Assembly (NCBI RefSeq): GCF_036370855.1
Contig: NC_088128.1
Span: 420,899-484,898 of the forward strand
DNA length: 64,000 nucleotides
Direction of reading: 5' to 3'
Source: Dromaius novaehollandiae
Lineage: Eukaryota
The notes beneath the pieces are model-generated. The model worked only from the letters and a program-made list of their open reading frames with translations, searched no databases and was not told the DNA's origin. Below, piece after piece: positions 371 to 22,795 of the stretch (position 1 is its first letter; each line of letters starts with the position of its first letter). Both the position numbers and the translations under genes were made by a program.

Positions 371-425
371 GAGTCGCCCCCGCCCGGACGCCTGGGCCCT
401 CTGTGGTGTTTTTTTTGGGGGGGAA

Positions 426-1500: not shown

Positions 1501-4500
1501 AGCTGCGGCGGCAGCACCCAGCCCGCCCCTCCCGCCGCGGCCACTCTGGCCCGCGCTCTCGGTGGCCGGGAGGGGGCGGGGCCTCGGGTGGGCGTTATGC
1601 AAATGAGGGGGCGGGACCCTTGGGGAATCAAGTTGCTCCCGGACACCTGGGCACTCGGACGCCTGGGCCCCTCAGAGAACTGAGTCACTCCCGGACGCCT
1701 GGGCCCCCCGGACACCTGGGCCCCTCCAGAGAGGGAGCGAGGGGCTGGGACAGAGCCCGGACGCCTGGGCCCCTGGGCTGGGGGTCAGGACGCACCCAGG
1801 AGCTGAGCCCTCCCCGGTGCGTGCGGGGCCCAGGCGTCCGGGCACCCCCCTCCCCCCAGTGCAGTCCCCGCTTCTCTCTGCGCAGAGGGCCCAGGCGTCC
1901 GGGAACAGCCCAATTCCCTGAGGGGCCCAGGCGTCCGAGTGCCCAGGGCATCCGGGAGTGACCCTGTCCTTCGAGGGGCCCAGGCGTCCGAGGGGCCCAG
2001 GCATCCGGGGCCGTGGGGGGACCCAGGGGTCGGAGGGGCCCAGGTGTCCGGAGAGGCGGCTGCACAGGGGCACCCGGACGCCTGGGCCCTCTGCGAGCGG
2101 GAATGGGAGGCAGCATCCCCGGACGCCTGGGCCCCCCCGGCTGCCTGGGCCCTTTGGGAACGTCCGAATTCGGATGCCCCGGACGCCTGGGCCCCTCATT
2201 GAATTGGGAGCCCGGACGCCTGGGCCCCTGGGAGAATCAAGTCACTCCCGGACGCCTGGGCCCCTTGGACGCCCCCAGACCCTGGGTCACTCCCCTCCTC
2301 TTGTTCACAGAGGGCCCAGGCGTCCCGGTGCCCCCGTGCAGCCGCCTCTCTGGACGCCTGGGCCCCTCGGATGCCTGGGCCCCTCGCACACGGGCTGAAG
2401 GGGGTCGGCTTGGGGTGGCAGCCGGACGTCTGGGCCCCTCATGTATGGTGGGGGGGGCGGGGGCCTGGGCTCCCCCAGACACCTGGGTCCCTTCGACGGC
2501 CCCAGTCCCCCCCCCCCAAGTCCGAGGGGCCCAGGCGTCCGAGGGGCCCAGGCGTCCGGGACGCCCAGACGTCCAGGCGCCCCCTGAGCCATGGACAGGG
2601 CGGCCCGGACGCCTGGGCCCCTCGAGCACTTCTGCTGCCTGAGACGCCCCCGGACGCCTGGGCCCCTTCCGGACGCCTGGGCCCCTCAGTGAATTGCTTC
2701 GCCCCGGACGCCTGGGCCCCTTGGAGATTTAGGTCTCTCCGGATGCCTGGGCCCCTCGAGCTCCTGGGCCCCGCCGGACGCCTGGGCCCTCCAGAGAGGG
2801 AGCAAAGGGCTGGGCATGGAGCCCGGACGCCTGGGCCCTCTGCCCGCGGGGGGAGGGGTGGCCACTGTTGGAGGGCGCCCGGACGCCTGGGCCCCCCGTA
2901 CATGGGGGCGGGGGGGGGGGGCTGGGGCCATGGGGAGGGGTCTGGCGTCAAGGAAAGGGCCCAGGCGTCCGGGGAAGGGCCCAGGCGTCCGGGAGTGACT
3001 TGATTCTCCCAGGGGCCCAGGTGTCCGAGGGGCCCCATTCTCTCAGGGGCCCAGGCGTCCGGGGTGACCCCCGTCTATGAGGGGCCCAGGCGTCCGGGGC
3101 AAAGCTAGTTCTCCGAGGGGCCCAGGCGTCCGGGTGCCCCCACGCGGCCGCCTCTCCGGACTCCTGGGTCCCCCGGACGCCTGGGCCCCTCACGAAGGAG
3201 CGGGGGGGGTCAGGTGGGGAGCGACTCCAGGACGCCTGGGCCCCTTGGCCGTGGGGAGGGGAGCAGCTAGTGGGGGGTGCCCGGATGCCTGGGCCCCTCG
3301 GACGCCTGGGCCCACTCTAAACGAGGGGAGGGGAGTGACCTGGGGGTGTCTGAGGGGCCCAGGCGTCCGGGCTCTGTCCTCAGCGGCCCTTCCCATAACC
3401 CATGACCCAGGGGCCCAGGCGTCCGGGAGCTACCGGATCCTCTGAGGGGCCCAGGCATCCCGGGCCCAGCCAAGTCTCTGAGGGGCCCAGGTGTCCGGGG
3501 AGACACAAGTCACCATGGGGCCCAGGCGTCCGGGGCACCCGAAGGGCCCAGGCGTCCGGGCTCCATCCCCAGGCCCTCGCTCCCTCTCTGGAGGGCCCAG
3601 GCGTCCGGGGGGCCCAGGCAGCCGAGGGGCCCAGGTGTCCGGGCATGCAGCAGCATTCAGGGGCCCAGGTGTCCGGCTCACCCCCCCCACAACTGCCCCC
3701 AAGGCCCCCCCGGACGCCTGGGCCCCTCCAGAGAGGGAGCGAGGGGCTGGGACAGAGCCCGGACGCCTGGGCCCCTGGGCTGGGGGTCAGGACGCACCCA
3801 GGAGCTGAGCCCTCCCCGGTGCGTGCGGGGCCCAGGCGTCCGGGCACCCCCCTCCCCCCAGTGCAGTCCCCGCTTCTCTCTGCGCAAAGGGCCCAGGCGT
3901 CCGGGAACAGCCCAGTTCCCTGAGGGGCCCAGGCGTCCGAGTGCCCAGGGCATCCGGCAGTGACCCCGTCCTTCGAGGGGCCCAGGAGTCCGAGGGGCCC
4001 AGGCGTCCGGGACGCCCCCTGAGCCATGGACAGGGCGGCCCGGACGCCTGGGCCCCTCGAGCGCCTCTGCTGCCTGAGACGCCCCCGGACGCCTGGGCCC
4101 CTCCCGGATGCCTGGGCCCCTCAGAGAACTGATTCAGTCACTCCTGGACATCTGGGTCCCCGGGACGCCTGGGCCCCTGGGACATGAGGTGAGGTGGGGT
4201 TCGGTTTGGGGGGGCGCCCGGACACCTGGGCCCTTTCCCGGACGCCTGGGCCCCTTGGCAGAACTGGAGCAGCCCTAGACACCTGGGCCCCTCGGACGCC
4301 TGGGCCCCTGGGAGAATCCAGTCACTCCCGGACGCCTGGGCCCCTCACGCACGGCGGGGGGGGGGCAGCGCTTTGGCTGTGTTGTCTGAGGGGCCCAGGC
4401 ATCCGGGGACACTCGAGGGACCGGAGGGCGCAGAGGGGCCCAGGCGTCCGGGCCCCCCCAATAGCTCCTCCACTCCCCCCCCCCACACACAGGGGGCCCA

Positions 4501-7500
4501 GGTGTCCGGGCGCCCACCCCCCATTGCCCCCTGCATGGAGGGGCCCAGGCGTCCGGGGGACCCAAACCTCCGAGGGGCCCAGGCGTCCGGGCCCTTCCCT
4601 CCCCCCCCCCAACCAAGCTGACCCGAACGACCCCCGGACGCCTGGGCCCCTCACAGAGAAGTTGGGGGGGGGGCAGTGCTCGGGCTGTGCTGTCCGAGGG
4701 GCCCAGGCGTCCGGGGACACTCGAGGGACCGGAGGGCGCAGAGGGGCCCAGGCGTCCGGGCTCCCTCCCAGCCCCTGGTTCCCTCTCTGGAGGGCCCAGG
4801 CGTCCGGGCACTCCCTGCCCCAGGAACGCCTGGGCCCCTCTGTGCCGGGGGGGGGGGAGTGGAGGAGCCATTGGGGGGTGCTCGGACGCCTGGGCCCCTC
4901 GGAGAGGTGGGACCCCGGGTGCCTGGATCCACTCGGACGCCTGGGCCCCTGGGAGAATCAGGTCGCCCCGGACGCCTGGGCCCCTCGGACACTTGGCTCG
5001 GCCCAGGACGCTTGGGCCCCTTGTTAAATTGGGCCATGCCCGGACGCCTGGGCCCCTCAGACACCCCCAGGTCACTCCCCTCCCCTCGTTTAGAGTGGGC
5101 CCAGGCGTCCGAGGGGCCCAGGCATCCGGGCACCCCCCACTAGCTGCTCCCCTCCCCCATGGCCAAGGGGCCCAGGCGTTCGGGGGACCCAGGAGTCCCC
5201 AAGTTGCTCCCCAGCTAAACCCACATTGGCACGTGTATGGGGGGCCCAGGCGTCCGGGGCCGTGGGGGGGACCCAGACGTGCGAGGGGCCCAGGCGTCCG
5301 GAGCGGGGGGTCCGTGCGGGGGCACCCGGACGCCTGGGCCCCTCGGAGAACTGCCTGTTCCCGGACGCCTGGGCCCCTGGGAGAATCAAGTCACTCCCGG
5401 ACGCCTGGGCCCTTCCCCGGACGCCTGGGCCCTTTGGGAGCCTCCGAATTCAGTTGCCCCGGACGCCTGGGCCCCTCATTGACTTGGGCCCCCGGACGCC
5501 TGGGCCCCTCGTTAGATGGGGCCGTCCCCGGACGCCTGGGCCCCTCGGAGAATCGAGTCACTCTCGGACGCCTGGGCCCTGTGGAGCATTGGGTACCCGG
5601 ACGCCTGGGCCCCTCGGACGCCTGGGCCCCCTCGATGCCCCCGGACGCCTGGGCCCCTGGTCCATGGGGGGAGGGGTTTGGGGCCATCAGGGGAGCCCAG
5701 GCATCCAGGGAAAGGGCCCAGGCATCCGGGAGTGACCTGATCCTCCCAGGGGCCCAGGCGTCCGAGGGGCCCAGGCGTCCGGGAGTGACTTATACTCCGA
5801 GGGGCCCAGGCGTCCGGGAGCAGGCAGTTCTCGGAGGGGCCCAGGCGTCCGGGGGGCCCAGGCGTCCCGGTGTTGCTCCCTAGCTGCCCCCCCCCCACAC
5901 CTGTCCAAGGGGCCCAGGCGTCCGGGGGGAGGGATGGGGGGACGCCTGGGCCCCTGGGACGCCTGGGCCCCTCCGTACAGGGGGCGATGGGGGGGGTGGG
6001 GGGTGCTCGGACGCCTGGGCCCCTCAAAGGACGGGGTCACTGCCGGATGCCCTGGGCACTCGGACGCCTGGGCCCCTCAGGGAATTGTGTTGCTCCAGGA
6101 CGCCTGGGCCCCCCCGGACACCTGGGCCCCACCGATGGCACCAGCCCCCCCCCCGCCATGGACAAGGGGCCCAGGCGTCCGGGGGCTGCAGGCATTCAGG
6201 GGGCCCAGGCGTCCGGCTGCCCCCCCAAGCTGACCCCCTTCAGCCCGTGTGCGAGGGGCCCAGGCGTCCGAGGGGCCCAGGCGTCCGGGGAATCCCAAAG
6301 GGCCCAGGCGTCCGGGGGGGCCCAGGTGTCCTGGAGCAAGAGAATTCACTGAGGGGGCCCAGGCGTCCGGGGGATCCAGGCAATTGGGGATGAACCGATT
6401 CTCCCAGGGGCCCAGGCGTCCTGGTGGGCCCAGCCCCTGTGCGGGGGGCCCGGACGCCTGGGCCCCTCCGGAGCCCCTGGACTGTTGCCACCATGATCGA
6501 AGGGCCCAGGCGTCCGGGGGTGACCTGATCCTCCCAGGGGCCCAGGCGTCCGAGGGTGACGTGATTCTCCCAGGGGCCCAGGTGTCCGGGGAGACCCACG
6601 TGTCGGAGGGGCCCAGGCGTCCGGGAGCAATTCAGTTCTCCCAGGGGCCCAGGCGTCCGAGGGGCCCAGGCGTCCGGACTCCCAATGCTCTACGGGGCCC
6701 AGGCGTCCGGGAGTAGCCAAATCACTGAGGGGCCCAGGCGTCCAAGGGGCCCAGGCGTCCGGGGACGGCCCAGTTCCCCCAGCAGATCCCCCTCGATCCC
6801 CCAGGACGCCTGGGCCCCCTGAACGCCCGGGTCTCCCAGATGCCTGGGCCCCCCAGACACCTGGGCCCCTCGGTGACTTGTGTTGCTCCCGGACGCCTGG
6901 GCCCCTCCCGGACGCCTGGGCCCCTCGGAGGATTAAGTTGCACTCGGACGCCTGGGCCCCTCGGACGCCTGGGCCCCTCGAATCCCGGGGTCCCTGGGAG
7001 AATCAAGTAACTCCCGGACGCCTGGGCCCCTCGGACGCCTGGGCCCCTCGAATCCCGGGGTCCCTGGGAGAATCAACTCCCGGACGCCTGGGCCCCTCGG
7101 AGAATGAGGTCACCCTCGGACGCCTGGCCCCCCCACACCCCCGGACGCCTGGGCCCCTGATGGCCCCTCATGGCAGAGACCACAACCCGAGAGCTGCCCC
7201 CCCCCCCCAACCAGTGCGTGAGGGGCCCAGGCGTCCGAGGGGCCCAGGCGTCCGGGGACGTTCAAGGTACTGGAGGGCGCAGAGGGGCCCAGGCGTCCGG
7301 GGGGCCCCGGCGTCCTGGGGGATCGAGGGGGATCTGCTGGGGGAACTGGGCCGTCCCCGGACGCCTGGGCCCCCGGGAGAATCAGGTGACCCCCGGACGC
7401 CTGGGCCCTTCGAACATGGTGGCAGAACTCCGGGGGCTCCGGAGGGGCCCAGGCGTCCGGGCCCCCCCACAGGGGCTGGGCAGTGCCCGGACACCTTGGC

Positions 7501-9420
7501 CCCCCGGACGCCTGGGCCCCTCAGGGGATCAGGTCGCTCCCGGACGCCTGGGCCCCCTTGGTGAATTAGGTCTCCCAGGACGCCTGGGCCCCTCGGACGC
7601 CTGGGCCCATCAGACACCCAGGCTCCCCCACCCCGCCATGGACGAGGGGCCCAGGCGTCCGGGCGCCCCCCAACAGCGGACACCCCTCCCCCCATGCGCA
7701 GAGGGCCCAGGCGTCCGGGGCACCCGAAGGGCCCAGGCGTCCGAGCTCCCTCTCTGGAGGGCCCAGGCGTCCGGGAGGGGCCCAGGAGCTCGAGGGGCCC
7801 AGGCGTCCGGGGGATCCAGGCAATTAGGGATGAACCGATTCTCCCAGGGGCCCAGGCGTCCTGGTGGGCCCAGCCCCCGTGTGGGGGGCCCGGACGCCTG
7901 GGCCCCTCCGGAGCCCCTGGACTGTTGCCACCATGATCGAAGGGCCCAGGCGTCCGGGGGTGACCTGATCCTCCCAGGGGCCCAGGCGTCCGAGGGTGAC
8001 GTGATTCTCCCAGGGGCCCAGGTGTCCGGGGAGACCCACGTGTCGGAGGGGCCCAGGCGTCCGGGAGCAATTCAGTTCTCCCAGGGGCCCAGGCGTCCGA
8101 GGGGCCCAGGCGTCCGGGGACGGCCCAGTTCCCCCAGCAGATCCCCCTCGATCCCCCAGGACGCCTGGGCCCCCTGAACGCCCGGGTCTCCCGGATGCCT
8201 GGGCCCCCCGGACACCTGGGCCCCTCGGTGACTTGTGTCGCTCCCGGACGCCTGGGCCCCTCGGAGGATTAAGTTGCACTCGGACGCCTGGGCCCCTCGG
8301 ACGCCTGGGCCCCTCGAATCCCGGGGTCCCTGGGAGAATCAACTCCCGGACGCCTGGGCCCCTCGGAGAATGAGGTCACCCTCGGACGCCTGGGCCCCCC
8401 ACACCCCCGGACGCCTGGGCCCCTGATGGCCCCTCATGGCAAGAGACCACAACCCGAGAGCTGCCCCCCCCCCCCCCAGTGCGTGAGGGGCCCAGGCGTC
8501 CGAGGGGCCCAGGCGTCCGGGGACGTTCAAGGTACTGGAGGGCGCAGAGGGGCCCAGGCGTCCGGGGGGCCCCGGCGTCCGGGAGACCCGGGCGTTCGGG
8601 GGCCCAGGCGTCCTGGGCGATCGAGGGGGATCTGCTGGGGGAACTGGGCCGTCCCCGGATGCCTGGGCCCCCGGGAGAATCAGGTCACCCCGGACGCCTG
8701 GGCCCTTCGAACATGGTGGCAGAACTCCGGGGGCTCCGGAGGGGCCCAGGCGTCCGGGCCCCCCCACAGGGGCTGGGCAGTGCCCGGACACCTTGGCCCC
8801 CCGGACGCCTGGGCCCCTCAGGGGATCAGGTCGCTCCCGGACGCCTGGGCCCCTGGGAGTATTGGGTACTTGGACGCCTGGGCCCCTCGGACGCCTGGGC
8901 CCATCAGACACCCAGGCTCCCCCACTCCGCCATGGACGAGGGGCCCAGGCGTCCGGGCGCCCCCCAACAGCGGACACCCCTCCCCCCATGCGCAGAGGGC
9001 CCAGGCGTCCGGGGCACCCGAAGGGCCCAGGCGTCCGAGCTCCCTCTCTGGAGGGCCCAGGCGTCCGGGGGGCCCAGGAGCTCGAGGGGCCCAGGCGTCC
9101 GGGAGGGGCCCAGGCGTCCGGGGGCGTCTCAGGCAGCAGAGGCGCTCGAGGGGCCCAGGCGTCCGGGCCGCCCTGTCCATGGCTCAGGGGGCGTCCCGGA
9201 CGCCTGGGCCCCTCGGACGCCTGGGCCCCTCCCCCAACTGCCTCGTGCCCGGACGCCGGGGCCCCTCAGAGGACTCAGTTGCTCTCGGACGCCTGGGCCC
9301 CCCGGACGCCTGGGCCCCTCAGGAAACTCGGTCGCCCCCAGGACGCCTGGGCCCTTCCAACATGGCGGCGACAGGCCAGGGGCTCCTGAGGGGCCCAGGC
9401 GTCCGGCCCCCCCCCCCCGG
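1500..9420. repeat. GC-rich complex satellite (~7.9 kb, ~200 copies) built on the core GGGGCCCAGGCGTCCG(G) and its reverse complement CCGGACGCCTGGGCCCC. Spacers are variable (20-40 bp) and the two orientations occur in alternating blocks
   Basis: Direct reading: blocks of 'cggacgcctgggcccct' (e.g. 1620-1780, 2080-2290, 4190-4330, 5320-5660, 6880-7160) alternate with blocks of 'ggggcccaggcgtccg' (e.g. 1830-2060, 2930-3130, 3350-3660, 5690-5880, 6250-6780). Proline/glycine-rich ORFs here are compositional artefacts. Confidence 0.9.
6365..9110. repeat. Higher-order repeat (HOR) inside the GC satellite. A ~1.3-1.45 kb block is present at least twice (6365-7800 and 7805-9110, with indels). Further HOR copies are 1735-1960 = 3733-3960 and 2560-2700 = 4000-4140
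   Basis: Near-identical stretches at fixed offsets: 6365-6720 vs 7805-8110 (offset 1440), 6878-7160 vs 8225-8440, 7207-7330 vs 8478-8600, 1735 vs 3733 (offset 1998). Confidence 0.6.
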
Positions 9421-9735
9421 ACGCCGGGGCCCCTCGCGGACGCCTCCAGCCCCGGCCGCGCCGCCGCGCGTCTGCGCCCCGGCGGCCCCTCAGCGCGCCC
9501 CACCCCTCTCGGCGGCTCCGGCCAATCATCGCGTGCGCCGCGCGCCGACAGCCAATGGGCGCGCGGCGGGGGCGGTGCCGGCGAGGAGGGCGCGGCCAAT
9601 GGGAGCGGAGCGCGGGAAGGCGGCAGCCGCCCCCTCCCCTCCCCCCCCCGCCCGGCTGTGGCGGCGTCGCCGCCGCGTGAGGAGCCGCCGCCGCCATTTT
9701 CTTCCCCCGCGCGAGGAAGCGGCGGGCGGAAGCGG
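9420..9735. promoter_or_regulatory. CpG-island promoter-like element: three CCAAT boxes (9522-9526, 9552-9556, 9596-9600), a GC box GGGGCGG (~9566-9576), a YY1-like GCCGCCATTTT (9688-9700) and two ETS-like CGGAAG/AGGAAG sites (9711-9734). It is TATA-less
   Basis: Motifs read directly from the sequence. CCAAT spacing of 30 and 44 bp is typical of NF-Y multi-box promoters. The element lies exactly between the GC-rich satellite and the G/T-rich array. Confidence 0.4.
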
Positions 9736-11190
9736 AACCGGGTGTTTGGGGCTTTTTCGGGGGGTTTTTGGGGGGCTTTTTCGGGGGGGGCGGTTGGGGG
9801 CTTTTCCTGGGGGGTTTTGGAGGTTTTGGGGGGCTTTTTCGGGGGGGTTGGGTCTTTTTCTGGGGGGGTTTTGGGGGCTTTTTCTGGGGGGTTTGGGGAC
9901 TTTAGGGGGCTTTGGGGGGGCTTTTTCGGGGGGGTTTGGTGGTCTTTTTCTGGGGGGGGTTGGGGGGTCTTTTTCTGGGGGGTTTTTGGGGGCTTTGGGG
10001 TTTTTTTTTCCGGGGGGGCTTTGGGGGTCTTTTTCTGGGGGGGGTTGGGGGCTTTTTGTGGGGGGGGTTGGGTCTTTTTCTGGGGGGGTTTGGGGGGGCT
10101 TTTTCTGGGGGTTGTGGGGGCTTTGGAGGGGCTTTTTCCGGGGGGGGGTTTTGGGGGGTCTTTTTCTGGGGGGGTTTGGGGGCTTTTTCTGGCGGTTTTG
10201 GGGGCTTTGGGGGGGCTTTTTCCGGGGGGTTTTGGGGGTCTTTTTGTGGGGGGGGGGTTGGGGGCTTTTTGTGGGGGGGTTTGGGGGGGCTTTTTCTGGG
10301 GCTTTTGGGGGCTTTTGGGGGGCTTTTTCTGGGGGGGGTTGGGGGGCTTTTTCTGGGGGGGGTTGGGGGGTCTTTTTCTGGGGGGGTTTGGGGGGCTTTT
10401 TCTGGGGGTTTGGGGGCTTTTTCTGGGGGGTTTTGAGGGGCTTTTTTTGCGTTTTGGGGCTTTTTCGCGGGGGTTTTGGGGGCTTTTTGGTGTTTTCAGG
10501 GGTCTTTTTCTGGGGGGGTTTTGGGGTCTTTTTCTGGGGGGGTGGGGGCTTTTTCTGGGGGATTTTGGGGGCTTTTTGGGGGGGTTTGGGGCTTTTTTGG
10601 GGGGTTTGGGGGGCTTTTTCGTGGGGGTTTTGAGGGCTTTTTGGGGTTTTTGGGGGGTCTTTTTCTGGGGGGGATTTTGGGGTCTTTCTGGGGGGGTTGG
10701 GGCTTTTAGGGGGTTTTGTGGGGCTTTTTCTGGGGGACTGGGGGCTTTTTTGGGGGGTTGGGGGCTTTTTTGCGGGGGTTTTGGGGGCTTTTGGGGGTTT
10801 TCGGGGGGGCTTTTTGAGGGTTTTGGAGGCTTTTTCGGGGCGGGGGGTTGGGGGGTCTTTTCCTGGGGGGGTTTTGGGGGGCTTTTTCTGTTTTTTTGGG
10901 GGGGGGCTTTTTCTGGGGGCGGTTGGGGGGCTTTTTTCCCCAGGGGGTTTTGGGGGCTTTTTCTGGGGATTTTGGGGCTTTCTCTGTTTTTTTGGGTTTT
11001 TTTTTCTGGGGGGTTTTGGGGGGCTTTTTCTGGGGGGGGGTTGGGGTCTTTTTCTGGGGGTTTTGGGGGTTTTGCAACTTTTTTTGTGAGTTTTACAATT
11101 TGGGTCTTTTTCTAGGTGTTTGTTGAGGCTTTTCTCTAGTTTTTTGGGGGGAGTTTCTAGGGTTTTGGTGACTTCTTACTACTTTTCTTT
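9735..11190. repeat. Degenerate G/T-rich tandem repeat (~27-30 bp unit, GGGGGCTTTTTCTGGGGGGGTTTTGGGGG-like). It is dense in G4-forming G-runs on the + strand
   Basis: Runs of 4 or more G separated by T-rich loops throughout. The ORFs 8426..10633 and 8479..11115 are stop-free artefacts. Confidence 0.85.
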
Positions 11191-14100
11191 GTGGCTTTTT
11201 CTAGGTTTTTGGGGGGGGCTTTTTTCCCCGTGGTTTTTTTGGCATTTTTTTCCCCCCGCGGTTGTTTTTTTTGGGGGCTTTTTTCCCCCCGCGGTTGTTT
11301 TTTTTGGGGCTTTTTCCCCCCGCGGTTGTTTTTTTTTGGGGGGCTTTTTCCCCCCGCGGGTGTTTTTTTTGGGGCTTTTTCCCCCCGCGGTTGTTTTTTT
11401 TGGGGGGCTTTTTCCCCCCGCGGTTGTTTTTTGGGGGGGCTTTTTTCCCCCACGGTTGTTTTTTTTGGGGCTTTTTTCCCCCACGGTTGTTTTTTTTGGG
11501 GCTTTTTTCCCCCACGGTTGTTTTTTTTGGGGGCTTTTTTCCCCCACGGTTGTTTTTTTTGGGGCTTTTTTCCCCCACGGTTGTTTTTTTTGGGGCTTTT
11601 TTCCCCCACGGTTGTTTTTTTTGGGGGCTTTTTCCCCCCCGCGGGTGTTTTTTTGGGGGCTTTTTCCCCCCACGGTTGTTTTTTTTGTGGCTTTTTCCCC
11701 CCGCGGTTGTTTTTTTTGGGGGGGCTTTTTTCCCCTGCGGTTGTTTTTTTTGGGGGCTTTTCCCCCCCGCAGTTTTTTTTTGGGGGGGCTTTTCCCCCCC
11801 GCAGTTTTTTTTTGGGGGGGCTGTTCCCCCCCGCGGTTGTTTTTTTTTTGGGCTTTTTCCCCCCGCGGTTGTTTTTTTTGGGGGCTTTTTCCCCCACGGT
11901 TGTTTTTTTTGGGGCTTTTTCCCCCCGCGGTTGTTTTTTTTGGGGGCTTTTCCCCCCCCGCGGTTGTTTTTTTGGGGGGCTTTTTCCCCCTGCGGTTGTT
12001 TTTTTTGGGGCTTTTTCCCCCCGCGGTTGTTTTTTTTGGGGCTTTTTCCCCCCCGCGGTTGTTTTTTTTGTGGCTTTTTCCCCCCGCGGTTGTTTTTTTT
12101 GGGGGCTTTTTCCCCCCGCGGTTGTTTTTTTGGGGGCTTTTTCCCCCCGCGGTTGTTTTTTTGGGGGCTTTTTCCCCCCGCGGTTGTTTTTTTGGGGGCT
12201 TTTTCCCCCCGCGGGTGTTTTTTTTTGGGGGGCTTTTTCCCCCCGCGGTTGTTTTTTTTTGGGGCTTTTTTCCCCCCGCGGTTGTTTTTTTTGGGGCTTT
12301 TTCCCCCCGCGGTTGTTTTTTTTGGGGGCTTTTTCCCCCCGCGGTTGTTTTTTTTGGGGCTTTTTCCCCCCGCGGTTGTTTTTTTTGGGGGGCTTTTTCC
12401 CCCCCGCGGTTGTTTTTTTTGGGGGGCTTTTTCCCCCCCGCGGTTGTTTTTTTGGGGGCTTTTTCCCCCCGCGGTTGTTTTTTTGGGGGCTTTTTCCCCC
12501 CACGGTTGTTTATTTTGGGCTTTTTCCCCCCGCGGTTGTTTTTTTGGGGGCTTTTTCCCCCCGCGGGTGTTTTTTTTTGGGGCTTTTTTGCCCCGCGGGT
12601 GTTTTTTTTTGGTGCTTTTTCCCCCCGCGGTTGTTTTTTTGGGGGGCTTTTTCCCCCCGCGGTTGTTTTTTTGGGGGGCTTTTTCCCCCCGCGGTTGTTT
12701 TTTTGGGGGCTTTTTCCCCCCGTGGTTGTTTTTTTTGGGGCTTTTTCCCCCCGCGGGTGTTTTTTTTGGGGGCTTTTTCCCCCCGCGGTTGTTTTTTTTG
12801 GGGGCTTTTTCCCCCCGCGGTTGTTTTTTTGGGGGCTTTTTCCCCCCGCGGTTGTTTTTTTTGGGGGCTTTTTCCCCCCGCGGTTGTTTTTTTGGGGGCT
12901 TTTTCCCCCCGCGGTTGTTTTTTTTTGGGGCTTTTTCCCCCCGCGGTTGTTTTTTTTGGCGGCTTTTTCCCCCCGCGGTTGTTTTTTTTGGGGGCTTTTT
13001 CCCCCCGCGGTTGTTTTTTTGGGGGCTTTTTCCCCCCGCGGGTGTTTTTTTGGGGGCTTTTCCCCCCCGCGGTTGTTTTTTTTGGGGGCTTTTTCCCCCC
13101 GCGGTTGGTTTTTTGGGGGGGCTTTTTCCCCCCGCGGTTGTTTTTTTTGGGGGCTTTTTCCCCCCGCGGTTGTTTTTTTGGGGGGCTTTTTCCCCCGCGG
13201 TTGTTTTTTTGGGGGCTTTTTCCCCCCCGCGGTTGTTTTTTTGGGGGCTTTTTCCCCCCGTGGTTGTTTTTTTGGGGCTTTTTTCCCCTGCGGTTGTTTT
13301 TTTTGGGGGCTTTTTCCCCCCGCGGTTGTTTTTTTTGGGGGCTTTTTCCCCCCGCGGTTGTTTTTTTGGGGGGCTTTTTCCCCCCGCGGTTGTTTTTTTG
13401 GGGGGCTTTTTCCCCCGCGGTTGTTTTTTTGGGGGCTTTTTCCCCCCCGCGGTTGTTTTTTTGGGGGCTTTTTCCCCCCGTGGTTGTTTTTTTGGGGCTT
13501 TTTTCCCCTGCGGTTGTTTTTTTTGGGGGCTTTTTCCCCCCGCGGTTGTTTTTTTTGGGGGCTTTTTCCCCCCGCGGTTGTTTTTTTGGGGGGCTTTTTC
13601 CCCCCGCGGTTGTTTTTTTTGGGGCTTTTTTCCCCCCGCGGGTGTTTTTTTTGGGGGCTTTTTCCCCCCGCGGTTGTTTTTTTTGGGGCTTTTTCCCCCC
13701 GCGGTTGTTTTTTTGGGGGGCTTTTTCCCCCCGCGGGTGTTTTTTTTGGGGGCTTTTTCCCCCCGCGGTTGTTTTTTTTGGGGGCTTTTTCCCCCCGCGG
13801 TTGTTTTTTTTGGGGGCTTTTTCCCCCCGCGGTTGTTTTTTTTGTGGCTTTTCCCCCCCGCGGTTGTTTTTTTTGGGGCTTTTCCCCCCGCGGTTGTTTT
13901 TTTTGGGGCTTTTCCCCCCGCGGTTGTTTTTTTTGTGGCTTTTTCCCCCCGCGGTTGTTTTTTTTGGGGGCTTTTTCCCCCCGCGGTTGTTTTTTTTGGG
14001 GGCTTTTTCCCCCCGCGGTTGTTTTTTTTGGGGGCTATTTTCCCCCCGCGGTTGTTTTTTTTGTGGCTTTTCCCCCCCGCGGTTGTTTTTTTTGGGGCTT

Positions 14101-14615
14101 TTCCCCCCGCGGTTGTTTTTTTTGGGGGCTTTTTCCCCCCGCGGTTGGTTTTTTTGGGGGGCTTTTTCCCCCCGCGGTTGTTTTTTTGGGGGCTTTTTCC
14201 CCCCGCGGTTGTTTTTTTTTTGGGCTTTTTCCCCCCGTGGTTGGTTTTTTTGGGGGGCTTTTTCCCCCCGCGGTTGTTGTTTTTTGGGGCTTTTTCCCCC
14301 CGCGGTTGTTTTTTTTTTGGGCTTTTTCCCCCCGTGGTTGGTTTTTTTGGGGGGCTTTTTCCCCCCGCGGTTGTTGTTTTTTGGGGCTTTTTCCCCCCGC
14401 GGTTGTTTTTTTTGGGGGCTTTTTCCCCCCGCGGTTGTTTTTTTTGGGGGCTTTTTCCCCCCGTGGTTGTTTTTTTGGGGGCTTTTTCCCCCCGCGGTTG
14501 TTTTTTTGGGGGCTTTTTCCCCCCGCGGTTGTTTTTTTGGGGGGCTTTTCCCCCCCGCGGTTGTTTTTTTGGGGGTTTTTTCCCCCCTGTTTTTTTTTTC
14601 TTGCAGCTTTTTCCC
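11190..14615. repeat. Highly regular tandem array of ~106 copies of the 31-33 bp unit GGGGGCTTTTTCCCCCCGCGGTTGTTTTTTTT. Each unit contains a G5/C5-6 hairpin (GGGGG-CTTTTT-CCCCC) and a CGCGG core
   Basis: The period-31 register is visible in the raw sequence (e.g. GGGG at 11467 and 11498). The ORF-track ORFs of 1187, 1259, 1343 and 448 (minus strand, lysine-rich) aa are artefacts of a stop-free repeat, because 31 is not a multiple of 3. Confidence 0.95.
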
Positions 14616-14619
14616 CTGT

Positions 14620-15293
14620 GGGTTTTTTCCTACTCAGGATGTGCTGCCCAGGTCTTTTTTGTTGTCTTTTTCATCTTGGCTGAGTATTCTCTCCTCACAG
14701 TCATGGCCTATGACCGCTACATTGCCATCTGCAGACCCCTGCACTACGGGACCCTCATGGGCAGCAGAGCTTGTGTCAAAATGGCAGCAGCTGCCTGGGC
14801 CAGTGGTTTTCTCAATGCTCTCCTGCACACTGCTAACACATTTTCAATACCACTCTGCCAAGGCAACACAGTGGAGCAGTTCTTCTGTGAAATCCCCCAG
14901 ATCCTCAAGCTCTCCTGCTCAGACTCCTACCTCAGGGAAGTTGGGGTTCTTGTGGTTGGAATTTGTTTAGTCTTTGGGTGTTTCATTTTCATTGTGCTGT
15001 CCTACGTGCAGATCTTCACTGCTGTGCTGAGGATCCCCTCTGAGCAGGGCCGGCACAAAGCCTTTTCCATGTGCCTCCCGCACCTGGCCGTGGTCTCCCT
15101 ACTCCTCAGCACTGTCATGTTTGCCTACCTGAAGCCCCCCTCCCTCTCCTCCCCATCTCTGGATCTGGTGGTGGCTGTTCTGTACTCGGTGGTGCCTCCA
15201 GCAGTGAACCCCCTCATCTACAGCATGAGGAACAAGGAGCTCAAGGAGGCACTGAAGAAACTCGGTCAGTTGGCACTGTTTCAGCAGCAGTAA
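14620..15293 (+). pseudogene. OR unit 1: 5'-truncated olfactory receptor (family 14 / gamma-c-like). Only TM3-end to C-terminus is retained (…SYSGCAAQVFF…MAYDRYIAICRPLHYG…KAFSMCLPHL…NPLIYSMRNKELK…*). The N-terminal ~95 codons are replaced by the 31-bp array
   Basis: Homology to the intact paralog (58116-59051) begins at ~14620 and runs to stop TAA at 15291-15293. No ATG or TM1-TM2 is present. The frame runs straight on from the satellite (ORF 11262..15293). Confidence 0.85.
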
Positions 15294-15504
15294 GCTGCCC
15301 ATCTCTCCTCACAAGTGATTTCCAAGCAATCTCTGGGAACATTTGTGGTTTGGGCATTCTCTCTGTGATGAACGTGTTTGTTCACAAATGTCTGAATTCA
15401 TCTCTCTTCTCCAGAGGTACAAACCCCGTCTCTCTGACCCAGAGGCCTTCCCTAAATCTACCGATCCCTGTCTCAGAGCTGGCCTCCCTTGCAGCATCTC
15501 TGTA

Positions 15505-15510
15505 ATAAAA
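15505..15510 (+). terminator. Candidate poly(A) signal AATAAA in the conserved OR 3' flank, ~213 nt after the stop. The same 'ctctgtaataaaagggg' is found after unit 2 (~23007) and, reverse-complemented, after unit 4 (~57908)
   Basis: The hexamer and its context are conserved in three of four OR units. Confidence 0.3.
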
Positions 15511-15602
15511 GGGGATTTCATCAGTACCCTGCCTGAAGGTTGGGCTTTTCTTCCAAAGCTGGGGCCAAAAACGTGCTCAGGGAATTGCACCTGAAAAGGC
15601 CC

Positions 15603-16432
15603 TGTTGCTGTGCCTGGGTTTTCCATGGGCTAAGGGGGATGTGCTCATAGGGTGATGTGTGAGGGAATGAGGGCTGGATTCAGCCCTCACTTGTGCGTGT
15701 CAGTGGCCCAGGAGAGGGTGAGTGCCCAAGCGGTGTCTGCTGGGGACTGTCTCAAATATTAGAGGGCTGGTGAGAGATGCCCATCCTTCTGCAAGGGAGT
15801 ATGGAGCCACCAGAAGAGCACAAGAGATCTCCAGGGACAGCATGTGCCTGGGATGGGCAGTGAGTGGAGACTCCCAAAGCCAAGTGGAGTCACCCATAGA
15901 TGAAGGGCCAAACCAAGGAATGCACCACATCAGGGCTCTGCAGTCTCAGGAGAGGCAGTGGGGACTCATCCAGCACAGGGAAGGCAGCCGCAAGAACGGT
16001 TCATGTCACATACAGTGAAAACCCATGGCTGGATCTAATGATGCACCTGACCCCATCCTGAGCCATTTGAGATGCCTTGTGATTGCTCTGAGCACCCTCC
16101 ACAGCCACAGACCCTGGGGAGCGGCTTGTCAGGCGCAGTGATGCTGGGCCAGCCGGGTCTGCCCTGACCAGCACGACCAGCGTGGAGTCACCCCGGGGCC
16201 CCACAGCTGCTCACTCTGCAGAGCAGCACCACCAGCCCGGGGAGCACAGCAGAGGGGTGCAGGAATGGCCGGTGAGGCCAGCACAGACACACTGATCAGA
16301 GGAAAGGCTCTCTGGAGAATAGGGATGTCTCTCGAGAAGAGCAAAGGAACAATTGTGGGCTTGCAGGGAGGAATTAATGAAAACCTGTTTCTATGTGTGT
16401 CAGCTCAGGACAGGCTGCTCTGTCACTGGACA
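15603..16432. repeat. Direct-repeat copy A (~830 bp) in the OR 3' flank. It has homologs within the window at 17396..~18260 (copy B, same orientation), 23105..23935 and 24898..~25760 (copies in unit 2), and, in inverted orientation, 33640-34700 and ~57000-57740
   Basis: Shared stretches include 'tgttgctgtgcc[tg]ggttttccatgggctaagg', 'tctcaaatattagagggctggtga', 'caaaccaaggaatgcaccacatcagggctctgcagtctcaggagagg' and 'tgctgggccagccgggtctgccctgaccagcacg'. Confidence 0.6.
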
Positions 16433-16589
16433 CTTTTACTAACCGAATCTATTCATTGTATCATATTTCCTCGTTCCTTCCCTTTCCTTTAAGCGTTTTC
16501 CAGTTTCCAACAGATGTTGAGTAACCTTGGTGTTCTGTCTGAGAAAGCTGTTGAGTTGATGGAAGGTTACTCCAAGTGGTACTGATATA

Positions 16590-16967
16590 TTAAATGGATC
16601 CAAACAAAGCCATCGTTTGTTCAGTCATATGAGAAGTTAACCAGTAAGTCTGCGTGGCGATTTGGTCAAAAACATAGGTCACATTACAACGGCTTTTGTT
16701 GCCTTCCATGTCTGTAGTACCCATCTCTATTGTCATAACCAGGTGCAGCTTCCCATCCCGTGTGTTATTACATATAGCTACCTTTAGAGTAACGTTAGAT
16801 CTTAGGGTCAGTGTAACATTATGGCCTACTATCAGTCCTTGACCTTGTGCTAATGATACAGATGGTATTTCTCTTGTAACTATAGTTTTAAAGATGGGTT
16901 GTGACTGATCTTCAATAACCAAGTTGTCCCATGGGCAACGTGAAAAGGCAGAACCTGTTAGAGGCAC
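16590..16967 (-). other. 125-aa ORF encoding a glycoprotein-like fragment with six N-x-S/T sequons (NVTLTLRSNVTLKVAICNNTRDGKL…NKSRCNVTY). It sits between direct repeats A and B and is of unknown origin
   Basis: The ORF lies within a ~960-bp insert (16432-17396). The extended minus-strand reading (…GSPIEKGVVSVAACIPAKTERKPYQSPGDEVVVKHPTQGSIWVTVLFYHGKGVRDAVD…) is broken by stops. I could not assign it to a known family. Confidence 0.25.
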
Positions 16968-17395
16968 ATTTCAGGTGTTTTTTTCCAGTTATCAGTGTCC
17001 CCACGGTTAGCAGCTAACACCACACTTCCCTGCAAGTGAAGACACCTAGGTCTTGGACATAATCCAAGCCTCATTTATGGTTAACTTGCTCTCTTCAGTG
17101 TCTACAGCATCCCGTACTCCTTTTCCATGGTAAAAGAGCACAGTCACCCATATTGATCCCTGAGTTGGATGTTTAACCACAACCTCATCTCCAGGACTTT
17201 GATAGGGTTTTCTTTCTGTTTTAGCAGGAATTCATGCAGCTACTGACACAACCCCCTTCTCTATGGGACTTCCTGTGGGAGTTTGTCGCTTATTTAGCCA
17301 ACTTTCTACTTCCCACAAATGGGATCCCCACTTAGAAGTAATCTAAAAAGAAGAGTCACTGTTGCTTCTGTCATCCACTCCATCTTTCTACTGCC

Positions 17396-18260
17396 TTGTT
17401 GCTGTGCCAGAGTTTTCCATGGGCTAAGGAACATGAGCTCACAGGGTGGTGTGTTAGGGAATGTCAGATGGATTCAGCCCTCCCTTGTGGGGGCCCAGTG
17501 ACCCTGAGGATGGTGAGCGGTAAAGAGGTCTCTGCTGCGGAGTGTCTCAAATATTAGAGGGCTGGTGACAGATGCCATCCTTCTGGAAGGGAGTATGGAA
17601 CCACTAAGAGAGCACAGGGCATCTCCAGGGGCAGTTTGTGCCTGGAGTGGGCAGTGAGTGGAGACTCCCCAAACCAAGTGGAGTCACCCAGAGGAAAGGG
17701 CCAAACCAGGGAATGCACCAAATCAGGGCTCTGCAGTCTCAGGAGAGGGAGTGGGCTGGGTCTAAGGACACACCTGAGCCATTGGAGATGGCCTGTGATT
17801 GCTCCAAGCATCCTCCACAGCCACAGACCCTGGGGAGGGCTTGTCAGGTGCAATGATGCTGGTCCAGCTGGATCTGCCCTCACCAGCACGGCCAATGCGG
17901 AGTCATCCCGGGGCCATACATCCTGCTTGCCCTGCAGAGCAGCACTGCCAGCCCAGCGCCCTGCAGGGAGCACAGGGCAGGGGTGCAGGAACGGCCAGAC
18001 CAGCATGGACACACACCTGGGGAAAGGCTCTCTGGGGAGCAGGGATGTCTCCGGAGAAGAGCAAAGGAACAATTGTGTGCTTGTGGGGAGGAATAAATGA
18101 AAACCTGTTTCCGTGTGTGTCAGCTCCGGGCAGGCTGCCCTGTCACTGGAGCTGCCTGAGGAGCCCCGGGGCCAGGACTCTTGTGCTGTGCTGGGGAGAG
18201 GGGCTGCCCAGAGGGGCTGCAGGCAGCCAGGGTTAAGGATCTCTGGTCGTGAGAGCAGGG
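17396..18260. repeat. Direct-repeat copy B (paralog of 15603-16432). It extends further than copy A at its right end
   Basis: See copy A. The stretch 18152-18260 still matches the inverted copy at 33830-33925, which copy A lacks. Confidence 0.55.
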
Positions 18261-19449
18261 GAGACATGGAGCGCCTGGCCTCCATTTCCTTGGGCCATTG
18301 CTGGCCCCCAGGTGTGGGGCTGATGGGGAGGCTGACACCCCTCTCTGCCCCCCAGCAGCTGCTGTGCCCTGCAGAGGGGCTGGGGCTGTGGGGTGAGTGC
18401 CCCGAGCTCTGCAGCCCCCTGCGGTGGGCACTGCTGTGGGGCCATCCCAGCCTGGTCTGCTGTGCTGGGTGGGCTGGGGAGAGGGCAGGGGAGGTGGGGA
18501 GAGCTGGGGAGGGTCTGGTCTGGTCTGGAAAGGGCCTGGGAGAGGCAAAATGCCAGCAGGCAGCTCCCATGCATGAATGGTGCCCAGAGCATGGGGAGGA
18601 AACTGGGGCAAAGACCCCTGCCCTCAGCTGCATGGCTGGGGCACTCGACAGGCGATGCCTTTGTGGGTGGCCAGGCTCCAGGTTCGGAGCAGATGCCAGG
18701 TCGAAGGCAGGAGCACTGGGACTGTGGTGAAGGCAAGTGGGCAGGCAGAGCCAGGCACACGCAGCTGCAAAGGCTGCCTTTGGAAAAGGCAGTGTGGGGC
18801 TGGTGAAGGCCCTCCCTCTCCTCCCCATGGGGAAGAGAGTCCCCAGGCAATGCTGGACTCTGCTTTGGCTGACAGGAAGGGAGCACAGGGCAGGGTGGAA
18901 GAGGCAGATGGAGCCTCTCCCGATGCATGAGGGAGTTTTCCAAAGCCCGGGGCTGAGCCAGGCACCTTTGGATCTTCCCCCCAACACTCTCCCAACCAGG
19001 CTCATTTTTCCCTGCCCTAGGTGCTCTCATCCCCCTGCCAGCCATGCCAGAGCAGAGGTTGAGGAGCAAGAGTTCATGGAGTGGCAGAGGAGTTTTGGTG
19101 GGAAGGGACCTCTGGAGGTCTCCAGCCAACCTCCCACATAAAGCAGGGCTGGTTGGAGCCCTACAGACTTCTCTGGTGATTGCTGGACTGTGCCTGACCC
19201 TGGTTACCATCCCCAAACCTGCTCTGCTCTTTTTTTCCAGGCACTGGGGGATGGCACCTCCCGTTGGGGCACTGTCCTGCCTGCCTTGCCGGCACCCTCG
19301 GCATTTTGAAGGGGCATGCTTTTCCTGTAGCTGTCATGCTGTATGTGCTGGAGACACCTCCTGTGTATTTGTGGGGTTCACAGGAGGGATCAGAATCCCA
19401 CTCCAGCCCAGGGGCTTCTAAACAGGCATGTGATGTCCAGATTGACTCA

Positions 19450-21996: not shown

Positions 21997-22795
21997 ATGT
22001 CCAACAGCAGCTCCCTCAATGAGTTCCTCCTCCTGGCGTTCACAGACACATGGGAGCTGCAGCTCTTGCACTTCTCACTCTTCCTGGGCACCTACCTGGC
22101 TGCCCTCCTGGGCAACGGCCTCATCATCACAGCCGTAGCCTGCGACCACCACCTCCACACCCACTGTCTTTTTGTTAGGAGGAGAGTATTCTCTCCTCAC
22201 AGTCATGGCCTATGACCGCTTTGTTGCCATCTGCAGACCCCTGCACTACGGGACCCTCATGGGCAGCAGAGCTTGTGTCAAAATGGCAGCAGCTGCCTGG
22301 GCCAGTGGTTTTCTCAATGCTCTCCTGCACACTGCTAACACATTTTCAATACCACTCTGCCAAGGCAATGTTGTGGACCAGTTCTTCTGTGAAATCCCCC
22401 AGATCCTCAAGCTCTCCTGCTCAGATGCCTACCTCAGGGAAGCTGGCCTTGTTGTGGCTAGTGTTTGTTTAGTTTTGGGGTGTTTTGTTTTCATTGTGCT
22501 GTCCTACGTGCAGATCTTCACTGCTGTGCTGAGGATCCCCTCTGAGCAGGGCCAGCACAAAGCCTTTTCCATGTGCCTCCCGCACCTGGCCATGGTCTTC
22601 CTCTTCATCAGCACCTCAGTTTTTGCTTATCTGAAGCCCCCCTCCCTCTCCTCCCCAGCTCTGGATCTGGTGGTGGCTGTTCTGTATTCAGTGGTGCCTC
22701 CAGCAGTGAACCCCCTCATCTACAGCATGAGGAACAAGGAGCTCAAGGATGCCCTGAGGAAACTCGTTCAGTTGGTACCATTTCAGCAGCAGTAA
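21997..22795 (+). pseudogene. OR unit 2: OR14/gamma-c-like gene with an internal 137-bp deletion (junction ~22160-22185). TM2, ECL1 and the start of TM3 are removed and the frame shifts, so it is a pseudogene
   Basis: ATG at 21997 (MSNSSSLNEFLLLAFTDTWELQLLHFSLFLGTYLAALLGNGLIITAVACDHHLHT…). It then jumps to …EYSLLTVMAYDRFVAICRPLHYG…NPLIYSMRNKELKDALRKLVQLVPFQQQ*. Length is 799 bp vs 936 bp for the intact paralog. Confidence 0.85.

Follow-up and report, generated by a model that had tools for sequence, protein, structure and literature searches.

Layout of the repeat locus

Within the window (the whole 64-kb stretch of DNA analysed here), a degenerate, G/T-rich lead-in minisatellite at 9748..11074 and a regular array of approximately 104-106 units of 31-32 bp at 11247..14616 are separated by a transition zone at 11075..11246. 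These tracts lie between a CpG island with promoter-like motifs (9351..9734) and a 5'-truncated OR14-type olfactory receptor (OR) pseudogene (14626..15293), all features being given on the plus strand. To an initial sequence-only reading, which had drawn attention to the repeats, the present analysis adds the context of the island upstream and of the truncated OR at the 3' junction, a compositional explanation of the open reading frames (ORFs), and a probable place in a known class of minisatellites.

The CpG island has a GC content of 82% and a CpG observed/expected (o/e) ratio of 1.00. It contains three RRCCAATSR boxes of NF-Y type, at 9520, 9550 and 9594, all on the plus strand; shuffled sequences give 0.00 such boxes, and the island holds three of the eight found in the whole window. 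The only two CGCCATNTT sites (YY1 type) in the window are also in the island, at 9359 on the minus strand and 9692 on the plus strand, and the lead-in begins about 50 bp 3' of the latter. These motifs mark the island as a putative promoter, with a possible transcription start.

The left flank of the repeats is 74% GC, and the repeats themselves sit at a sharp compositional boundary, with this GC-rich and repeat-rich sequence on one side and a CpG-depleted OR14 cluster on the other. Other local repeat families nearby, comprising a 91-bp repeat and 16-mer/36-bp blocks, are unrelated to those described here. Rfam covariance models returned no match at gathering score in the whole window, nor were telomeric repeats found in it. 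At the left edge of the window a putative GC-rich terminal exon pair (171-369) was also observed; a doubled 33-aa query from these exons matched nothing, PDB sequences gave nothing convincing, and comparison with Pfam yielded only a sub-threshold HHH_5 hint (E = 0.083).

On its 3' side the array abuts the OR pseudogene, identified by BLAST and Pfam. BLAST homology to an intact OR (58116-59051, minus strand) begins at 14626, equivalent to position 58783; the first 268 nt of coding sequence (89 codons) are missing from the fragment, and its match to Pfam 7tm_4 covers profile positions 61-275 only. The 3' end of the array is a rearrangement junction, at which these first 89 codons of an OR paralogue were removed. 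Further downstream the fragment runs into 3.9 kb of sequence with 96.8% identity to a paralogous segment, which identifies the right flank as ordinary genomic sequence. The surroundings had been characterized as a gene-dense OR neighbourhood. OR14-like sequences are indeed present, but there are only four in the 64-kb window, one of them intact. The OR genes of the window are closest to those of emu (up to 92% amino-acid identity), then to those of kiwi, which assigns the window to a palaeognath bird; for the intact OR no identical protein is on record.

Repeat units, coding potential and predicted structures

Tandem Repeats Finder (TRF), the check proposed in the sequence-only reading, reports for the array (11247-14616) a period of 32, with 106.3 copies, 92% matches, 3% indels and the consensus GGGGGCTTTTTCCCCCCGCGGTTGTTTTTTTT. 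The earlier estimate of about 106 very regular copies is sustained: a 26-mer from the unit, allowed up to three mismatches, finds 102 matches in the window, every one of them on the plus strand and within 11244-14568, with 0 expected by chance. The start of the array, previously set at 11190, is however better placed at about 11247 according to TRF, the interval 11075-11246 being degenerate transition in which the first recognisable unit appears at about 11211. When the array is cut at its C-runs, 104 whole units are obtained, predominantly of 32 bp (n=41) or 31 bp (n=35) and otherwise ranging over 30-35 bp; homopolymer run lengths are the main source of these differences. The array spans 3.37 kb and has only 14 A residues in 3370 nt, with an A+T content of 47.2% overall and of 45.2% (14/31) in the commonest 31-mer.

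The lead-in is far less regular. Over its 1.33 kb (9748-11074) TRF reports a period of 21-25 bp, approximately 57 copies and 68% matches, with a consensus of about GGGGGCTTTTTCTGGGGGGGTTT; there are 17 A residues in 1340 nt, and the GC skew is +0.68. In the 172 bp between lead-in and array, degraded GGCTTTTTCTAGGTTTT-type units can be read directly from the sequence, and TRF recognises five copies of period 22 at 11099-11210 (62% matches); this zone has 16 A in 172 nt. Array and lead-in alike consist of head-to-tail units of 10-100 bp repeated over 0.5-30 kb, the definition of a minisatellite. A 10-mer core, GGGCTTTTTC, occurs on the plus strand 22 times in the lead-in and 74 times in the array, and in 0 copies on either strand of the remaining 59 kb of the window. 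By this common and exclusive core, lead-in and array constitute one family, as anticipated when the lead-in was initially described as a related, degenerate G-rich version of the array. The CGGTTG or CCCC that follows the T run is already present in variants of the lead-in.

Very long ORFs, of up to 1343 aa, run through the array on both strands and in several frames, and its minus-strand translation matches the Pfam domain RDM3_C with 42 bits, above the gathering cut-off of 35. These are features that a gene for a repetitive protein might present. However, the repeat region as a whole contains 47 A in 4881 nt, and with so little A (1%) on one strand neither strand can form a stop codon, such that the long ORFs are an artefact of composition. 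The reading frame also drifts, since a 32-bp unit is not a multiple of three and individual units range over 30-35 bp; a 480-aa query assembled from both array strands found no match among 5.8 billion proteins; and the RDM3_C score comes from low-complexity sequence, periodic and rich in lysine and glycine, that matches a repeat domain of plants. A coding repeat is rejected on these combined grounds. Derivation of the array from the adjacent OR exon, by "exon stuttering", was also considered, in view of the last degenerate unit, which carries CCCCTGTGG and thereby resembles the CCCTGTGG that paralogous OR genes have some 20 nt upstream of the junction. Yet trimers of the unit score 15-16 against OR genes, where shuffled ORs have means of 15-17, and BLAST matches within the repeats to OR exons reach at most 24 bits, compared to a threshold of 42 bits in the paper describing stuttering. 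Alignment of the unit to OR exons being no better than to shuffles, this origin is rejected as well, and an explanation in terms of either coding function or exon origin is scarcely credible. The array represents neither a gene nor an RNA family nor a transposon.

Predicted non-B structure differs markedly between the two tracts. Judged by the presence of at least four runs of three or more G separated by short loops, together with a G4Hunter score exceeding 1.5, only the lead-in qualifies as a tract of predicted G-quadruplex (G4) motifs. Its mean G4Hunter score is 1.78, with 80% of 25-nt windows exceeding 1.5; it has 110 runs of at least three G, and 25 PQS (loops of up to 12) cover 74% of its length, on the plus strand only. 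The near-continuous plus-strand G4 runs noted there at the outset are thus amply documented. In the 32-bp array there are 0 PQS, and the G4Hunter maximum is 1.40. The array unit had been seen instead as hairpin-forming. A stem-loop is in fact predicted when the unit is folded as DNA (5-bp stem, 7-nt loop, -4.6 kcal/mol), but it is marginal, its stability being no greater than expected from composition (z = -0.7 against dinucleotide shuffles, of which 50/200 fold as well or better), and multi-unit folds, computed for trimers, have no defined centroid structure. Classification as a strong hairpin or cruciform repeat is accordingly rejected. T-tracts in the array are spaced mainly at a harmonic of about 15.9 bp (power 80); a second, much smaller peak lies at 10.55 bp (power 12). 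With the 16-bp harmonic dominant, rather than 10.7 bp, clean A-phasing of the array, in which A/T tracts would recur every 10-11 bp, is not supported; in the lead-in, T-tract periods peak at 10.8-11.85 bp.

Recent duplication and alternative origins

The regularity of the array had been attributed to recent expansion or homogenisation, and this view is now substantiated by several features of its units. A 7-unit block of 220 bp is duplicated exactly and in tandem within 13149..13619 on the plus strand (13160-13379 = 13380-13599, 220/220), the exact match at the 220-nt offset reaching 11 nt leftward and 240 nt rightward; identical pairs of units are correspondingly in excess at lag 7 (14/97). 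A 3-unit block of 97 bp is likewise duplicated at 14199..14392, also on the plus strand (14199-14295 = 14296-14392, 97/97), and six successive units at 11447-11633 carry the ACGG variant. Near units are more alike than distant ones, with a mean edit distance of 2.74 at lags 1-3 vs 2.97 +/- 0.05 in permutations. The CpG o/e ratio is 0.81 in the array vs 0.16 in the flank, and CpG transitions (ACGG, GTGG, TGCGG, GCAG) occur in about 21 of some 47 substituted units, as counted from the unit table, where CpG sites represent 4 of 32 positions. This combination of a high CpG ratio and an excess of CpG transitions reflects the youth of the array together with methylation-type decay. From the exact duplicates, the similarity of neighbours and the contrast in CpG content, we conclude that the array is young and recently homogenised. 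The stalling of replication forks and the instability in length foreseen in the sequence-only reading are inferences; the exact internal duplicates would be compatible with a marked length polymorphism among individuals, a hallmark of the stuttering type discussed below.

Several alternative explanations must be weighed against local generation of such an array. It could represent one locus of a catalogued satellite dispersed throughout the genome, an idea encouraged by the affinity of the window's ORs to those of emu and by the modal unit length of 31-32 bp. The emu satellitome includes two satellites with 31-bp units, DnoSat04-31 (42.0% A+T) and DnoSat06-31 (35.5%) (PMC11036779; GenBank OR813804-OR813827), of which DnoSat04-31 makes up 0.35% of the emu genome and is found on the W and several autosomes, on both micro- and macrochromosomes (BMC Ecol Evol 2024, PMC11036779). 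Both share with the array a 31-bp unit, a GC-leaning composition and a palaeognath host. Their A+T contents differ from the 45-47% of the array, whose commonest 31-mer comes within one or two bases of DnoSat04-31 but is more distant from DnoSat06-31, in a comparison that uses unit length and A+T only and in which consensus building could itself shift one or two bases. The unit moreover has a local precursor, with a common core, directly upstream. The full text of 8 million papers, searched for both strands, contained no printed sequence matching the unit and yielded only two unrelated papers; its exact 26-mer had 0 matches in JGI metagenome contigs and in the viral contigs of IMG/VR, and a 19-mer from the lead-in found only 15 single, non-tandem chance matches in metagenome contigs. 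In the emu genome paper the only repeats named are two centromeric ones, of 65 bp and 81 bp, which have no bearing on the array. We consider membership in a catalogued emu satellite possible, though unlikely.

Mis-assembly of G4- or homopolymer-rich reads might conceivably have generated the copy number, the exact duplicates or the OR junction. G4-rich, repeat-rich regions of bird genomes are documented trouble spots in sequencing and assembly, false duplication could in principle account for the exact copies of 220 bp and 97 bp, and much of the variation among units is in homopolymer length. Such an artefact is nonetheless quite improbable. The array sequence has no N and is continuous with unique flanks; the two copies of the 7-unit block agree exactly in homopolymer lengths, an agreement that random read error would not be expected to produce; and the variants are structured rather than noisy, as is evident in the runs of neighbours and in the spectrum of CpG transitions.

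Selection for structure offers another perspective, in which a promoter-proximal G4/R-loop tract would serve as a functional cis-element that might set a replication origin, maintain an unmethylated CpG island or form a boundary between GC-rich and OR chromatin. Vertebrate origins and CpG-island R-loops are associated with G-skewed sequence of this kind, and G4s in promoters and 5'UTRs of bird genomes are hypomethylated. Compatible with such a role are the short distance that separates the last YY1-type motif of an undepleted CpG island from the start of the lead-in, the strictly one-stranded G4 density and strong GC skew of the lead-in, and the placement of the repeats exactly at the compositional boundary. 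That placement, however, is equally explained by the rearrangement junction; the degeneracy of the lead-in is what neutral decay would be expected to yield; and the large 32-bp array offers only a weak hairpin and no G4 motif. On balance a selected cis-element appears improbable.

Comparison with other G-rich tracts extends this theme. Among G4-forming minisatellites such as the human insulin-linked VNTR and CEB1/CEB25, and in the switch regions S-mu and S-gamma, the architecture is one that promotes R-loops and G4s and goes together with instability in length. The lead-in resembles these in its kilobase scale, its units of about 20-25 bp and its G-richness on the presumed non-template strand, and, as in promoter-proximal G4 minisatellites, it lies just downstream of a promoter-like CpG island; the large 32-bp array, without G4 motifs, departs from that pattern. 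An actual immunoglobulin switch region is rejected: AGCT/WGCW motifs are lacking, as follows from a strand with 1% A, and the neighbours are OR14 genes rather than an immunoglobulin locus. An extended proposal, which we regard as very improbable, is that the promoter-anchored, one-stranded and G4/R-loop-prone lead-in and its derived array form a recombinogenic, switch-region-like hotspot where DNA is broken and rejoined at the edge of the OR14 amplicon, with the truncated OR at 14626 as its footprint. If it were true, such tracts would help to drive the rapid turnover of avian OR14 clusters, and a satellite would have been born from a promoter-proximal minisatellite.

Probable local generation of the minisatellite

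The combined features of the locus are most readily reconciled with a non-coding, locally generated minisatellite that arose in two stages and belongs to the avian "sequence stuttering" type, an explanation we consider probable. In the first stage, an older and now degenerate G/T-rich repeat of about 23 bp (9748-11074) would have been established downstream of the promoter-like CpG island. In the second, one variant of this repeat may have grown to 31-32 bp and been amplified and homogenised to about 105 copies (11247-14616). Replication slippage and unequal exchange are the likely processes, with a register that ranges from one to seven units. In its extreme G+T richness the plus strand has the polarity expected if that strand is non-template and transcription starts at the CpG island; given such transcription, the lead-in would favour R-loops and G4s.

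This type of repeat has been described recently in birds. Tandem repeats make up over 70% of dot-chromosome introns, and most are minisatellites whose unit lengths are multiples of 10-11 bp, in which G4s are enriched on the coding strand (bioRxiv 10.1101/2025.10.17.683159); the process termed "sequence stuttering" yields strictly local expansions (Genome Biol Evol 2026, PMC12954441); and OR amplicons of chicken lie in dot-chromosome heterochromatin beside satellite DNA (PMC9974502). Judged by composition (the GC content of the left flank), the present locus may belong to the same dot-/microchromosome class; a position in an intron or in intergenic euchromatin of such a chromosome is hinted at only by the CpG island upstream and the putative exon pair at 171-369. 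Within the window the family is confined to 9748-14616, beside unrelated families and in GC-rich sequence, the locality that distinguishes stuttering. Further resemblances are short units that have expanded strictly locally, within a region very rich in GC and filled with repeats; unit lengths near multiples of 10-11 bp (here about 22-23 and 32); G4 motifs on one strand; signs of recent, ongoing duplication; and unrelated local families lying side by side (here the 91-bp, 16-mer/36-bp, 23-bp and 32-bp repeats). There are also differences. Stuttering is known mainly from annotated dot-chromosome introns of chicken and zebra finch, whereas this locus is known from its sequence alone, and the array borders on an OR pseudogene instead of a conserved exon and contains no exon-derived sequence. 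By analogy, the array most likely falls into the already described class of minisatellites that populate GC-rich regions of bird chromosomes.

A more distant likeness exists to the 41-bp CNM repeat of chicken and to the 21-bp sate-21/XhoI-EcoRI family of the W chromosome, in which T/A tracts also alternate with G+C-rich cores, and which display small dyad symmetry and higher-order repeats. Those units, however, carry both A and T tracts (TTTTCnnnnnGAAAAnnnnnn), whereas one strand of the array is essentially without A; they also differ in sequence and species, and form megabase centromeric or W-chromosome arrays in contrast to the 3.4 kb seen here.

By itself the locus introduces no new kind of element and answers no open question, and it marks a region where assemblies and read coverage need care. 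If local generation in two stages is correct, it would nevertheless provide a clean, small-scale example of how minisatellites generated on the spot come to fill GC-rich regions of bird chromosomes. The 23-bp repeat, old and G4-rich, the transition and the freshly homogenised 32-bp derivative would then stand in a row, from a CpG island to a junction that inactivated an OR paralogue, and the occurrence of "stuttering", described in chicken and zebra finch, would extend to a genome of palaeognath-like character and to the edge of an OR14 cluster.

The repeat array and its lead-in

Tandem Repeats Finder delimits a regular array on the + strand at 11247-14616, with a period of 32 bp, 106.3 copies, 92% matches and 3% indels. 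It is preceded by a far more degenerate, G/T-rich lead-in at 9748-11074 (+; periods 21-25, ~57 copies, 68% matches) and a degraded transition at 11075-11246, in which a short degraded repeat stretch is recognized at 11099-11210. A 26-mer of the unit has 102 matches at <=3 mismatches, all on the + strand and within 11244-14568, where none is expected by chance. Cutting at the C-runs yields 104 whole units; 32 bp is the commonest length (41 units), followed by 31 bp (35 units), and the others fall within 30-35 bp. The differences in length lie mostly within the four homopolymer runs. The coordinates, unit and copy number first proposed by a sequence-only reading are thereby borne out, and its observation is sound, save that the array start, there placed at 11190, is corrected to near 11247.

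Across both strands of the window, the 10-mer GGGCTTTTTC is confined to the repeats, with 22 copies in the lead-in and 74 in the array. Directly after this core, lead-in units have T or G (CTTTTTCT, 25 copies; CTTTTTCG, 7 copies) and array units have C (CTTTTTCC, 80 copies). CGGTTG or CCCC after the T run is already present in some lead-in units. As judged from these motifs, lead-in and array are one repeat family, the array being its young portion. Within the array, recent duplication and homogenization are indicated by an exact seven-unit duplication (13160-13379 repeated at 13380-13599; the exact match spans 251 nt at an offset of 220 nt), an exact three-unit duplication (14199-14295 repeated at 14296-14392), an ACGG variant common to six successive units (11447-11633), and a greater similarity of neighbors (mean edit distance of 2.74 at unit lags 1-3, versus 2.97 +/- 0.05 when permuted). 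Identical unit pairs at lag 7 number 14 of 97. The two copies of each duplicated block agree exactly in homopolymer length, which speaks for genuine variation in sequence rather than read noise. The observed/expected ratio of CpG is highest in the upstream island (1.00), followed by the array (0.81), the GC-rich block (0.52) and the remaining 49 kb (0.16). CpG transitions (ACGG, GTGG, TGCGG, GCAG) appear in ~21 of ~47 substituted units by manual count; these features are those of a young array, presumably in early decay through methyl-CpG deamination.

Composition, coding capacity and predicted structure

Adenine is nearly absent from the + strand of the repeats: base counts over the 4881 nt at 9735-14615 are A 47, C 987, G 1639 and T 2208, and only 14 of the 3370 nt in the regular array are A. 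AT skew reaches -0.9 to -1.0, GC skew is +0.68 in the lead-in, and G+T make up 79% of the strand. No stop codon can be formed without A on the + strand, or T on the - strand, and ORFs therefore reach lengths of up to 1343 aa across the repeats, in multiple frames of both strands. They are ruled out as genes by a period of 32, which is not divisible by three, by the drift of unit length over 30-35 bp, and by the lack of homologues among 5.8 billion proteins for a 480-aa query from both array strands. The sole Pfam match, to RDM3_C (42 bits) in a lysine/glycine-rich minus-strand translation of the repeats, is rejected as coding evidence, the resemblance to this plant repeat domain being periodic and of low complexity. 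Rfam returned no match anywhere in the window.

Early structural claims, of quadruplex potential and of a hairpin in each unit, proved half right. Quadruplex density is substantiated at the motif level in the lead-in only, where G4Hunter averages 1.78 and exceeds 1.5 in 80% of 25-nt windows, runs of at least three G number 110, and 25 non-overlapping motifs (loops <=12 nt allowed) cover 74% of the sequence, on the + strand only; the 32-bp array has no such motif and a G4Hunter maximum of 1.40. The unit hairpin exists, with a 5-bp G:C stem and a 7-nt loop when a single unit is folded as DNA, but it is weak (-4.6 kcal/mol, z-score -0.7), 50 of 200 dinucleotide shuffles folding equally well or better. 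In three-unit stretches numerous G-run/C-run pairings compete, and no centroid structure emerges. T tracts are spaced chiefly at ~16 bp in the array, with a minor component at 10.55 bp, and at 10.8-11.9 bp in the lead-in, so that phased bending is not clearly supported.

Sequences flanking the repeats

At the left edge (171-369, +) lie the putative last two exons of a GC-rich gene, with an acceptor (...ccgcag/CTGGAGGAC), a donor (CTCGAG/gtgagc) followed by a 96-nt intron, and a final exon ending in ...GAGAGCCAATAA, where AATAAA overlaps the stop codon and a T/G-rich tract follows. The predicted peptide (LEDLAEVPGFSAATVAALLE/ANLPEALESPESQ*) has no homologue in the protein database and, in Pfam, shows no more than a hint of a helix-hairpin-helix below threshold (HHH_5, E = 0.083). 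Between this gene end and the block of 16-mers described below are ~10 copies of a 91-bp repeat (575-1497; 80% matches) with a 456-bp higher-order period. A short GC-rich stretch directly preceding that block (1500-1625) carries the octamer motif ATGCAAAT between two GGGGCGGG boxes and looks promoter- or enhancer-like in its motifs; no Rfam snRNA or other RNA was found near it.

Within the GC-rich block (384-9354; 74% GC), the 16-mer GGGCCCAGGCGTCCGG occurs in 202 copies at <=2 mismatches, versus 0.12 expected, on both strands in alternating same-orientation blocks. Its spacers are 17-53 bp and poorly conserved (TRF units of 17 bp and 35-36 bp), its variants are mostly CpG transitions, and we found no printed occurrence of it in the literature; strong conservation, variable spacers and inverted blocks make for an apparently unusual arrangement. 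A CpG island follows (9351-9734; GC 82%, CpG observed/expected 1.00), containing three + strand CCAAT boxes of NF-Y type (9520, 9550 and 9594) and the only two YY1-type sites (CGCCATNTT) in the window, in opposite orientation (9359 and 9692). Neither type of site arose in shuffles. The repeats begin ~50 bp past the second YY1-type site.

The array sits exactly at the boundary between this GC-rich, repeat-filled sequence and a CpG-depleted cluster of olfactory receptor (OR) genes, mostly pseudogenes. The window is of avian origin, and its OR14-type receptors most resemble those of emu (up to 92% amino-acid identity); kiwi and cassowary come next. Only one of four copies is intact (58116-59051, -; 311 aa); another is frameshifted (35741-36650, -), a third has an internal deletion (21999-22795, +), and the fourth is 5'-truncated by the array (14626-15293, +). 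In the last, homology to the intact gene starts at 14626, the first 268 nt of the CDS are absent, and Pfam 7tm_4 is matched from profile position 61 onward only. A segmental duplication (14682-18565 versus 22184-26076; 96.8% identity, offset ~7.5 kb) carries the truncated OR in one copy and the OR with the internal deletion in the other, the deletion falling between ...HLHTP and EYSLLT...; because the receptor of this second copy retains its 5' end, the array junction must have formed in a once-complete paralogue. Tandem repeats of 63-64 bp whose consensus sequences resemble one another (AGGTCACT core) are found in the OR-cluster part at 30980-31101, 48848-49302 and 51216-51346.

Origin and affiliation of the array

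The array is most simply explained as a non-coding minisatellite that arose locally. A ~23-bp G/T-rich repeat adjoining the CpG island would have come first; one variant of it would then have grown to 31-32 bp and been amplified and homogenized. The duplications are directly observed; the probable mechanism is slippage together with unequal exchange, over registers of one to seven units. Its richness in G+T gives the + strand the polarity expected of a non-template strand, were transcription to start at the CpG island, and such transcription, suggested by motifs and composition only, would favor R-loops and G4s across the lead-in. That the repeats are a selected structural element, serving as an origin, a boundary or in an R-loop role, we consider improbable.

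Identity with a catalogued satellite is a somewhat better prospect, though still unlikely. The emu satellitome includes two satellites of 31-bp unit, DnoSat04-31 (42.0% A+T, 0.35% of the genome) and DnoSat06-31 (35.5% A+T) (PMC11036779), and the A+T content of the array is 45-47%, a comparison of composition rather than of sequence. An assembly artefact is improbable, as the variants are structured and the flanks ordinary. 'Exon stuttering' from a receptor gene was rejected, alignments of unit trimers to OR genes being no better than those to shuffled ORs.

The local minisatellite favored here appears, by analogy, to match a recently described class in birds. Tandem repeats constitute >70% of dot-chromosome introns in the T2T genomes of birds that include zebra finch and chicken; most are minisatellites whose unit lengths are multiples of 10-11 bp, and they are enriched in G4s, with a bias of intronic G4s toward the coding strand (bioRxiv 10.1101/2025.10.17.683159). 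'Sequence stuttering' is the term used in chicken for population-variable, strictly local expansions within GC-rich dot-chromosome sequence (PMC12954441). Also in chicken, a receptor gene has been amplified to 386 copies within dot-chromosome heterochromatin among satellites (PMC9974502). The array is best filed within this already known kind of avian minisatellite.
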